Source of the DNA: a virus
Lineage: Duplodnaviria; Heunggongvirae; Uroviricota; Caudoviricetes
IMG/VR virus record: IMGVR_UViG_647533159_000005
Length of the DNA stretch: 11,837 nucleotides
Reading direction: 5' to 3' (one strand)
Shown: piece by piece, positions 6,001-9,000 of the stretch
Position numbering within the stretch: position 1 is the stretch's first letter
Layout of the letters: every line of letters begins with the position of its first letter
Made by a program: the position numbers

Positions 6001-9000
6001 ACGGGGATAACATCCCGTTTTAATTCACAACAGCGAACAGAGTAATTACAGGGGAAGGCATGACAACGCTGACCATTAACCGAAAACCGAAAGGCATTTA
6101 CGGCACGCAGTCAGAAACGACGCAGGCGGCACAGCAGCAGGATAAAACCACATCGGCGCATAAAGTGATACCCGGCAATCAGAACGCACAGCAGAAGCCC
6201 ACAGGGGCGACACCGTGGCGGCATATGACCAAACGCCAGCGTAAAAACCGCAGACGCGTTAACCGCCTTATTGAATTGTGGCCTGACTTATTCAACAGGG
6301 AAGCACCGAAGCCGCTGAAGGTGGGGATATTTGACGACCTGATGCGGGATATCGCCGCCAGGGGGCTGACATTCGGGCCGGGGGCATTACGTGCGACGCT
6401 GGCATCCTATGCGCAGTCTCCGCGCTATTACCGCGCCCTGATAGCTGGTGGCGCACGTTACGACCTGAAAGGCCAGCCATGTGGGGAAGTGACACCACAG
6501 GAACAGCAGGAGGCAGAAACGCGGCTGGCAGCACTGAATGAAAAGCGCAAACGTCAGGCGACAAAGGAGAGGACAGGCGCATGATTCGTGACAGCAAAGC
6601 GGAAGAACTGGAGACTAAAGGCCTGTACCGGAGAGCGGCGGCGCGGTGGGCTGAGGTCATGCAGCTGGTGAACACCGATAAGGAGCGCGAACAGGTGGCA
6701 AAGCGTCGTGCGGAATGCATCCGCAAGGCAGCACGCCCACCCGTTATGGCGGATAACTTCGGGGCGCTGAAAGAGGCTGTAAACCGCACTCATGCGGTGA
6801 TGGGGATGGAAGACGCGGGTAAATCCGTCTGGCGGAACTACCCGAAGCAGCCTGGCAGCAACCAGTGATGCCGGATATTATCCTGAAAAATGATCATCAC
6901 TCCCGTGGGCGGATAACATAAAATCCTGCATATGCGCACATACACAGACGAAGCCGGAACAATCCGGCTTTTTTTACGGGTCCTTCCGGAGGGGGGGGCC
7001 TTACCGTGGGGCGACGGACGCGCGGGAATCGCCAAATTTTCGCATTTTTATCGGTCATCACCACCAGCGCAATTTATTGATAATGAAGGTTAAAAAAAAT
7101 TCCCGGTGTCGAAAACGCCTGTTTTTTGTTCATCACTGAATCATGCGCATCATGATACCAAGATACCCGGTATTGCTGCGTGATAACCCACAGGACTGGT
7201 GGCGATGCGTTATGGTCCGTGCGTTGCCATCTTCCTGGCCTGATGGCATTATCCGGCATGAACGAGCGGTTATTCTCCGTACTCTTAATCGTTGTTCATG
7301 GTTATTTGCTTTGTGGTAGCTAACATTTCCTGATGGTTATTATCCTTCTGCCCCGTAATCACGGGGATTTTTTTACCCGCGTTCTGCCGTTCTCCCCTGT
7401 GCTGTTGGTAGCGTCACGATGTGTCACGGCATGTCACCATCACGTCACGCTGATTGCGAAAGCCAGGATTAACCAGTACCGGAACGGGTAGCCCGATGTA
7501 TTGTTACCGTCCTGCCGGCTGGTGGAGTAATTGATAACGGTTATCATCAACGGGAGGGGCAGATCAAATCCCTGTGGCCCTGGATGTCAGGGACCGCCTG
7601 CCAACCCTTCTTCGCATCGCCGCAGGTTCGAAAACTTTTTTTTGGGAAGGTGCGCACAGAGTTGATAGATAAAACCTATCAGAGAAAATCACGTCAAACC
7701 CGCGTCATTGCTGGCATCGTTAAAAAAACTCACTCCACCAGCAGACTAAAAAACCGCGATTTTTCCGGTTTTATGGGCTGAAAAGGGGCTCCCTAAAAAA
7801 CATCTCTCACACTGCCGGACGGAGACGGAGATTTTTACGGGTCCTTTCCGGAGGTCTGAATACCGGGGGTACGAATACGCGCAATTCTTAACTGTTTATG
7901 AAAATTTTTAGGGGAAAAGCGTGTCGGTACTTCTCGCGCATAACTGTTTGTTTTCATTAAAATCGACAATCGGAAACATACGACACCATAACACCGGAAA
8001 ATCCCGTTTTTCTGGCGTTTCATGTCGGAGGTGGTTTTTGATGAGGATTTGATAGATGAATGTTAACAAAAAGAGACTGGCGGAGATTTTCGGTGTTGAT
8101 CCGCGCACAATTGAACGCTGGCAGACGCAGGGCCTTCCTCATGCATCTGGTGGCGGAAAAGGCGTGGAAGTGACTTTCGACTCTGCACAGGTGATCGAAT
8201 GGTATGCCCAGAGGGAGAAGGACATCGAAAACGAAAAACTCCGCAGGGAGCTTGATGATTTACGTGCTGCTGGTGAATCAGATTTACAGCCAGGCACAAC
8301 AGAGTACGAACGCTACCGTCTCACCAAAGCACAGGCGGACGGGCAGGAACTGAAGAACGCCAGAGAGACAGGGGAAGTTATAGATACTGAGTTCGCACTC
8401 TGTGCGCTTCGTGGTCTGGCGCGCCAGATTTCTTCGATCATGGATAGTTTACCGCTCACAATGCAAAGGCAGTTCCCCGCGATGACTCCGGCAATGATCG
8501 AGGGCCTGAGGAAAGAAACAGCACGCGCCTGTAATGCGTGCGCTAAAACTGCCGATAATCTACCCCGCATTCTGGAAGACTACCTGATGGAAACAACCGG
8601 AAACGTGCCGGAGAAATTACGGCAACAGAAAGGTGAGCGACAACCGCGCAATTATTGAACAAAACAGAGAAAGGATCTGATAACGTCATTTTTGGCCCAA
8701 AATGACCACTGTCAGATCCTTTCTTTTTTTGATGATTTTACGATTAAACAATGAGTTACAGAGAAGAAGAACGGATCTGACTTTTCCCGAAAAATTTTCA
8801 TAAACAGTTAAGAATTGCGCGTACCCGTCCCCCCGGCGCTTAAGGTTCCGGAAAGGACCCGCAGGAAATAGCTACCGTAAGGCGTAATTAAATATCCGGG
8901 GATGTGCCACGGAACAGCCTGCTGAATACAGGTCAGCGTGATGACGGTAAATAAAGAGAATATACGAGAAGGAAAAATATTAGTTTAAAAACTAATGTCC

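Follow-up and report, generated by a model that had tools for sequence, protein, structure and literature searches.

A Nu1-family small terminase of apparently chimeric make-up between inverted cos sites in an Escherichia coli phage-inducible chromosomal island

The cos1-terS unit and its conservation

The analysis of IMG/VR virus record IMGVR_UViG_647533159_000005 (11,837 nucleotides, hereafter the window, meaning the whole stretch analysed) reveals that the region around terS, a gene for a Nu1-family small terminase subunit (TerS), is a cassette for packaging specificity in an Escherichia coli phage-inducible chromosomal island (PICI) of about 12.9 kb, a member of the EcCICFT073/EcCIIHE3034 family. 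The cassette consists of a cohesive-end site (cos1), terS, and an inverted second site (cos2). We lean towards a route, rated as somewhat probable, in which the island's own TerS recruits the large terminase subunit (TerL) of a helper to cos1, so that the island is packaged by a lambdoid helper phage.

An earlier note on this DNA, made by inspection, had described terS as Nu1-like, and this description is borne out by a full-length open reading frame (ORF) that covers positions 1-162 of the 164 in the Pfam model Phage_Nu1 (PF07471; 228 bits, cut-off 30; E=6e-68) and also matches PHROG 57 'terminase small subunit' (8e-64). The N-terminus aligns by phmmer with the solved first 98 residues of lambda TerS (6hn7_B residues 4-101, E=2e-39) and with 1j9i (E=6e-24), and is a predicted winged helix-turn-helix (HTH) like that of lambda gpNu1. 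A Shine-Dalgarno motif, GAGGA, lies 8 nt before the terS ATG. Upstream of the gene is cosB (end of R1 at 8033, ATG at 8056) and downstream is cos2, not terL; the missing terL after terS is the departure expected of a satellite copy.

The same note had posited a lambda-type cos in front of terS. Its cosQ and cosB elements proved real (7838-8050), whereas the cosN is of a non-lambda class, here called class II, and the cosB is of the phage 21 type. Together, cos1 and terS align with the cos segment and gene 1 of phage 21 (M81255/X02501) at 74% identity over 506 nt (E=3e-76), in a stretch that covers about 220 bases 5' of terS and continues into gene 1; the alignment of 7835-8040 to lambdoid cos regions, whose absence the note had named as a refutation, is significant. 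The cosB of cos1 alone is 73% identical to that of phage 21 and 63% identical to that of lambda. With the R and I boxes placed via the phage 21 annotation in M81255, the element order cosQ, I2, R3, I1, R2, R1 is that of phage 21, all five boxes between cosN and terS align with annotated phage 21 sites, and cosQ stands about 17 bp before cosN, which is the lambda-type spacing. The window holds two copies of the cosQ 12-mer, one each in cos1 and cos2 on opposite strands, against 0.07 expected by chance (Table 1).

Within TerS, residues 1-110 are phage-21-like, recognition helix included, and the DNA identity of terS to phage 21 ends at about codon 112. The C-terminal part has its nearest counterpart in PhiR5_1 (57%) and falls into the ...LPxxLxDYL class, with lambda and the L028-type phages (L numbers are our labels for compared loci), and outside the ...GRWIDDFRR class of phage 21. 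These features point to a chimera, in which a 21-type DNA-binding domain that would fit cos1 is joined to a lambda-class C-terminus that would bind TerL. Across phages and satellites alike, the type of the TerS N-terminal domain co-varies with the upstream cosB R boxes: the 21-type helix is paired with (A/G)TGTCGG boxes, the CDVRTITGWQ type with CAGATCC boxes, and the ...AFDKWGV type with GGTGGT/GGTTGTTGT boxes. Across phages, the TerS C-terminal class likewise co-varies with the N-terminal sequence of TerL, as expected because the Nu1 C-terminus binds the gpA N-terminus, an established rule (PMC9026076), and TerS of the ...LPxxLxDYL class is paired in phages with TerL N-termini of the MN(I/T)S..QLNN type.

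The protein ends in a tail of 13-19 residues that is found in satellites only and in no phage TerS. Window-type and IHE3034-type TerS have unrelated N-termini and share the C-terminal half and this tail. An origin of the tail as the remnant of a fused TerL N-terminus (NVPEKLRQQ versus NTSEKQLNN) was rejected, as the DNA alignment showed a resemblance out of register; it is also contradicted by the homology to PhiR5_1, which fades at the phage stop codon. A TerS-protein scan of genome contigs returned distant Shewanella-type relatives only, and the C-terminal 89 residues, used as a protein query, yielded nothing but fragments.

The position of terS raises the question of its relation to the Rpp proteins of other PICIs. 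It sits at the exact rppA slot of EcCICFT073, between the same inverted cos pair, and one cassette thus takes either terS or rpp as its gene. An Rpp-like mode of action would involve mixed oligomers with the helper's Nu1-type TerS that block the phage cosB and retarget the complex to cos1, with helper TerS required. Rpp has a TerS-like DNA-binding domain through which it heterodimerises with TerS (PMC6739421), and residues ~55-105 are almost invariant between island and phage TerS. When the ORF was aligned to both families, as the earlier note had advised, the Nu1 match was full-length, and the stretch in common with RppA was only a 27-residue HTH segment (E=2e-5). Rpp proteins have 139-154 aa and lack the C-terminal 30-40 residues (PMC9026076), whereas the window TerS keeps the full Nu1 C-terminus, including the whole homologue of the gpA-binding segment; with it, no need of helper TerS to reach TerL is evident, which argues against an Rpp-like mode without being decisive. 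Judged by the usual features of an Rpp (about 140-155 aa, no TerL-binding C-terminus), the window TerS would not be counted as one, and we regard this mode as unlikely.

Conservation of the gene gives a further view of its role. Pairwise ratios of nonsynonymous to synonymous substitution rates (dN/dS) among satellite terS genes are 0.12-0.20, so terS is kept by selection. Its 90% cluster holds 212 members, single variants occur on up to 284 contigs, and the exact window protein is found on 25 public contigs, all from E. coli. The unit could also be a dead relic: a lambdoid prophage would have decayed down to its left end (cos and gene 1), which came by chance to be joined to an integrase island. 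Such an origin, with no role in packaging, would agree with the deleted replicase of the window copy and with the deletions, insertions and inversions of the region among relatives. We consider it highly improbable, given that the cassette is found on at least three satellite backbones and at two integration sites, that the ORFs are intact with dN/dS of about 0.15, that no other prophage genes are adjacent, and that the C-terminal tail is satellite-specific.

A second class of cosN and the stacked cos sites

In the multiple alignment the true phages (lambda, 21, PhiR5_1 and 4A7) have ACGGGGCGGCGACCTCGCG at cosN, from which cos1 differs. The class II form reads CCGGGGG...ACGCGC in its place, and the canonical cohesive end GGGCGGCGACCT is absent from both cos1 (CCGGGGGTACGAATACGCGC) and cos2 (CCGGGGGGACGGGTACGCGC). 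A strict class II pattern had no match in IMG/VR, and a looser one anchored on cosQ retrieved 28 contigs. About half of these are lambdoid phage contigs, with the consensus CACCGGGGGTCnnnnnACGCGCAAAAACGCGC, in which the cosN stands directly before terS, terL, portal, decoration and capsid genes. Complete E. coli genomes also have annotated prophages of this class, one example being the lambdoid prophage at 4.74 Mb of E. coli 16F5M1D1 (NZ_AP019856.1); both occurrences rule out decay as the source of the odd cosN. Comparison of the two window sites with those of L023, L025, L027, L029, L039 and L043 indicates conserved flanks and a centre that varies between otherwise near-identical cos sites (TCATAGC, TCGTAGG, TACGAAT, GACGGGT and others), unlike the canonical cohesive end, which is invariant across distant phages. 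Two other satellites of the family (L041, L045) carry one canonical and one class II cosN among their two cos sites. No description of class II cosN was found in the searchable literature, where a string search yielded nothing relevant. If true, lambdoid phages would have a second, so far undescribed kind of cosN in which the centre of the cohesive end varies. The class bears on cos recognition in prophage and satellite annotation.

The inverted cos2 lies directly after the terS stop. It has in common with cos1 the cosQ and an identical 34-nt stretch over the right side of cosN and I2. Its cosB boxes are CAGATCC(G/T)TTCT, unlike the cosB type of cos1; this type also occurs in phage L043 (75% identical over cosB), the SerU-LTIIb prophage and Gifsy-1. 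Its R1 and R2 (8662-8730) make up an imperfect hairpin of 34 nt that starts 4 nt past the terS stop and has a T run behind it; this hairpin could double as the terS terminator.

Beyond this inner pair lie two cos remnants. The forward one, cos3, matches the cos before the DUF1441 terS of the IMG/VR phage L033 at 88% identity (137 nt, E=2e-46), and the inverted cos4 is 83% identical to the region upstream of DUF1441 in L031 and 76-78% identical to L033 and PhiR40_1. The two are the arms of an outer inverted repeat, detected by blast between 6978-7063 and 10361-10446. The cos2, cos3 and cos4 sites resemble complete phage cos regions whose cognate gene is absent from the island, an arrangement that would agree with cos mimicry only, in which helper terminases recognise the cos directly, as for SaPIbov5, and terS is dispensable or serves interference alone. 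Phages L025 and L029 have a cos1-like cosB with their own 21-type TerS, and in L024 and L037 most of terS is gone and both cos sites are kept, which would also fit. We consider mimicry alone quite improbable in view of the purifying selection on terS, the strict pairing of DNA-binding domain and upstream cosB across satellites of different backbones, and the conservation of the C-terminal module and tail over satellite TerS with unrelated N-termini.

The cassette is also rearranged among relatives. In comparison with L026, whose integrase is 100% identical, the segment between the inner cos arms (7838-8861) is inverted with colinear flanks, and in comparison with L001 and L031 the larger cos3-cos4 segment (~7064-10360) is inverted. 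The terS gene points the same way as int in the window, in its chromosomal source L053, in L057 and in every satellite that has capsid-like genes, and it is antisense in L001, L026, L031, L054-L056 and L058; the identical TerS protein occurs in both cassette orientations among natural isolates. No invertase gene is present, and the simplest reading of these flips would be homologous recombination between the inverted cos repeats. Besides the Nu1-type gene, a DUF1441 TerS gene (PHROG 141) is kept in L001 (13749-14258), L031 (8268-8774), L055 and L058. In the window this gene is lost and its cos (cos3) is kept, and in L024 and L037, where the Nu1-type terS is largely deleted, DUF1441 and both cos sites are kept. 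The DUF1441 protein was tried as an Rpp and rejected: BLASTP against RppA gave E=4.7, there was no PDB hit, and it is the PHROG 141 'terminase small subunit' (8e-55) found upstream of terL in mEp460/PhiR40-type phages. The inverted cos2, the two remnants, the flipped cassette of relatives and a replicase deletion (below) all go beyond the earlier note.

A broader reading, which we put forward tentatively as possible but rather doubtful, is that the cassette is exchangeable, with either Rpp or a chimeric TerS as the specificity gene, the latter freeing the satellite from helper TerS, and that four stacked cos sites of at least three cosB types, all with a non-lambda cosN, form nested inverted pairs that flip by recombination. 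If true, the stacked cos specificities would widen the helper range. The multiple cos sites and second cosN class bear on how satellites broaden or switch helpers.

Chromosomal setting and the proposed packaging route

The window is 100% identical to positions 2226553-2238389 of the E. coli chromosome OU349838.1, and the 20.6-kb source context (L053), running from yejM/tRNA-Pro to yejO/narP/ccm, places the island beside tRNA-Pro with yejM on one side and yejO on the other. The integrase starts 210 nt beyond tRNA-Pro(GGG), which lies beside yejM, and yejO, narP and ccm form the far flank. A 16-bp direct repeat, TTTTTAGCTACACGTT, lies outside the window at both ends (L053 1855-1870, between tRNA-Pro and int, and 14749-14764, about 1 kb past the right end) and is probably the att core; the island size of about 12.9 kb follows from the length that these repeats bracket.

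No tblastn match to TerL (two types), portal, major capsid protein, decoration protein, RppA or DUF1441 was obtained in the window or the 20.6-kb L053 context, and there is thus no sign of the capsid, portal and terminase set of a capsid-forming PICI. In the window, tblastn with reference proteins and Pfam and PHROG scans of the ORFs found no lysis, tail or complete head genes. As the flanks in L053 hold neither terL nor capsid genes, a complete prophage around the island, which the earlier note had named as fatal to its proposal, is excluded; the note's statements that TerL, portal and capsid are missing and that packaging would depend on a lambdoid helper agree with these results. With no TerL, portal, capsid or tail encoded, the island would have to be packaged by such a helper.

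The proposed route builds on the identities, architecture, family relations, domain co-variation and purifying selection described above. A helper would trigger excision and replication of the island, whose TerS would bind the phage-21-type R boxes of cos1 via its 21-type winged HTH and, through its lambda/PhiR5_1/L028-class C-terminus, recruit the helper TerL. This TerL would nick the adjacent class II cosN, and island multimers (3-4 units of 12.9 kb, or 39-52 kb) would enter full-size helper heads. The helper TerL must accept both a class II cosN and a lambda-class TerS C-terminus, and candidate helpers would be the L023, L027, L028 and L042 types, whose own cosB is unlike cos1. Such logic would amount to the 'own TerS, borrowed TerL' strategy of the Staphylococcus aureus pathogenicity islands (SaPIs) moved to a cos system. 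In addition, the convergent cos2 with its CAGATCC cosB would let phages of that type package the island directly, and the cos3 and cos4 remnants may likewise allow direct packaging by other helper types.

Several observations weigh against this route. When resident prophages were induced, TerS islands of the IHE3034 and 18098 types showed little or no transfer (PMC6092414, Table 1). Because the central region of TerS is near-identical to that of phage Nu1-type proteins, the island protein could co-assemble with helper TerS in an Rpp-like manner, and because its C-terminus is only ~45-57% identical to that of any phage TerS, TerL binding is not assured. The gene is antisense to the island operon in most relatives of the ProQ/PerC type, and a promoter scan gave no more hits than in shuffled sequence. 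The nick positions in class II cosN are ones that we infer, and with a broken replicase the window island may transfer poorly.

Backbone genes and comparison with known systems

The island has the backbone int, AlpA, DUF4222, DUF927-type primase/replicase, SSB and PerC in rightward gene order, which corresponds to the PICI layout of an integrase at one end, AlpA, a primase-replicase and a length of about 10-15 kb; here the primase-replicase is disrupted (Table 1). An out-of-frame deletion of ~800 bp at 4651-4665 removed most of the DUF927 domain, which weakens the claim of the earlier note that the island has its own origin. An intact replicase of 707-710 aa, with DUF927 at residues 167-434, is found in L001, L026 and L057, and L057 (GCA_048242925.1) is the window island plus the extra 800 bp, otherwise 99.9-100% identical; the window copy is therefore probably replication-defective. 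The integrase is 99-100% identical to those of the IMG/VR satellites L026, L032 and L037.

Table 1. Features of the window, with coordinates on the strand as given
Feature	Coordinates	Strand	Evidence or remark
Tyrosine integrase, 413 aa, island left end	1-1242	+	Pfam Phage_integrase, Arm-DNA-bind_3, Phage_int_M
AlpA-family regulator	1774-1980	+	Pfam Phage_AlpA, 4.5e-08
Disrupted DUF927 primase/replicase, two ORF fragments (4054-4713, 4866-5363)	4054-5363	+	PHROG 1139 DNA primase
SSB	5601-6023	+	Pfam
ProQ/FinO	6060-6584	+	Pfam
PerC	6581-6868	+	Pfam
cos3, remnant of DUF1441-TerS phage type, cosQ CGGGTCCTTCCGG at 6977	6975-7140	+	its terS gene absent
cos1	7838-8050	+	alignment with phage 21, lambda, PhiR5_1 and 4A7 cos
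cos1 cosQ/R4 CGGGTCCTTTCC	7838-7849	+	invariant across lambda, 21, PhiR5_1, 4A7
cos1 cosN, class II, CCGGGGGTACGAATACGCGC	~7863-7885	+	multiple alignment
cos1 I2 TTTATGAAAATTTTT	7895-7909	+	
cos1 R3 AAGCGTGTCGGTACTT	7917-7932	+	15/16 identical to phage 21 R3
cos1 I1	7939-7954	+	
cos1 R2	7975-7990	+	
cos1 R1	8018-8033	+	
terS, Nu1-family small terminase, 200 aa	8056-8658	+	Pfam, PHROG, solved-structure matches
cos2, inverted, no gene after it	8660-8861	-	116-nt inverted repeat with cos1
cos2 cosQ	8861-8850	-	
cos2 cosN, class II	8836-8817	-	
cos2 I2	8804-8790	-	
cos2 R3	8782-8765	-	
cos2 I1	8759-8744	-	
cos2 R2	8723-8708	-	
cos2 R1	8683-8666	-	
K88-family fimbrial subunit gene, cargo	9188-9988	+	Pfam Fimbrial_K88, 2.6e-52
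cos4, inverted remnant, PhiR40_1/DUF1441-phage type	10288-10450	-	alignment
Second PerC paralogue	11529-11837	+	Pfam PerC, 9.6e-23; window end falls inside the island, ~1 kb short of the putative attR

PICIs spread virulence and fitness genes, and the cargo here is a K88-type fimbrial subunit, within a segment (8961-10105) that has no counterpart in L001. Its product has a signal peptide, no usher or chaperone gene lies nearby, and the L026 homologue shows only 60% identity to it. The two PerC genes, which are in direct orientation and share 42% identity, stand on either side of the packaging and cargo region. The cysteine-rich ORF 1985-3088 (367 aa, no Pfam hit) is probably no real gene, because relatives hold several small genes there (an Ash-family pseudogene, YlcI/YnfO and Icd-like). 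Rfam gave zero matches in the window.

Among known systems, a TerS-bearing E. coli PICI is nothing new since 2018, when Fillol-Salom et al. listed the IHE3034 and 18098 islands as those that 'encode TerS' and the O42 and CFT073 islands as those that do not (PMC6092414). The literature searched contained no characterisation of an E. coli PICI TerS, and the packaging of cos-type Gram-negative PICIs is understood for the Rpp route only. What seems undescribed, as read from the sequences, is the chimeric make-up of TerS, the class II cosN, and the stacking and flipping of inverted cos sites. The window island resembles EcCIIHE3034 and EcCI18098 in its backbone (int, AlpA, Icd-like, DUF4222, primase, SSB), and it resembles EcCIIHE3034 in a Nu1-family terS between an inverted cos pair at the right end and in the common C-terminal half and tail of TerS. 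The EcCIIHE3034 TerS differs in its length (180 aa) and its unrelated N-terminal domain, with 48% identity overall, and its cosB is of the GGTGGTGG type with a canonical cosN. Capsid-like and decoration-like genes are present in EcCIIHE3034 and absent from the window island, and the reverse holds for the ProQ/FinO, two PerC and K88-type fimbrial genes.

The experimentally validated EcCICFT073 (NC_004431, 1377930-1388654) has the same backbone gene order and the same cassette position and layout, namely a forward cos, a specificity gene and an inverted cos, and it depends on a lambdoid helper, as proposed for the window island from its genes. It has two functional cos sites and is packaged as multimers in full-size heads (PMC6092414). 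It differs in that its specificity gene encodes RppA (144 aa, no TerL-binding C-terminus), its cosN is canonical and helper TerS is required (PMC6092414, PMC6739421, PMC9026076). A TerS-carrying PICI would stand in contrast to this Rpp route, as its transfer should not depend on helper TerS. Between the two types stands L032, whose integrase (99%), AlpA (96%) and SSB (96%) match those of the window and which has RppA, capsid-like and decoration-like genes and no TerS; in L036, L038 and L047 the capsid-like genes are combined with a TerS that is 95-96% identical to the window protein. A published statement holds that PICI cos sites lack an apparent phage cosB counterpart. As side observations, the cosB in the inverted EcCICFT073 cos, CCATGTCCGGTTTC (L005 ~20339, minus strand), resembles the L023 cosB (1699-1900), and the inverted cos of RppA-type satellites (L032 472, L046 331) resembles the cos of L028-type phages (L028/L042).

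The assignment to PICIs rather than to P4-like satellites, as the earlier note had favoured, holds because the backbone matches EcCICFT073 and EcCIIHE3034 and because L032 has RppA in place of TerS. Among the ORFs scanned there was no Pfam or PHROG hit to the P4 markers sid, psu and delta, and the window cos is of the lambda/21 type. In SaPIbov5 and P4, the cos is recognised by helper terminases and no TerS is encoded, and P4 has a P2-type cos together with sid, psu and delta; the cos2, cos3 and cos4 sites of the window look like this strategy, from which its terS sets it apart. SaPI1 and SaPIbov1 use a headful pac mechanism in which their own TerS pairs with the helper TerL and Ppi blocks the phage TerS. 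The likeness to the window island is a satellite-encoded TerS that would redirect helper TerL to satellite DNA, and the differences are the pac-type packaging, an unrelated TerS family and a separate Ppi.

Phage 21, compared with the cos1-terS unit, has the same order and sequence type of I2, R3, I1, R2 and R1 and the same recognition helix, and the window departs from it in the lack of an adjacent terL, a class II cosN in place of GGGCGGCGACCT, another C-terminal domain and the extra tail of 13-19 residues. The Feiss laboratory reportedly engineered lambda-21 hybrid terminases, and in joining 21-type DNA specificity to a lambda-class C-terminus, the window TerS would be a natural counterpart of these classical hybrids.

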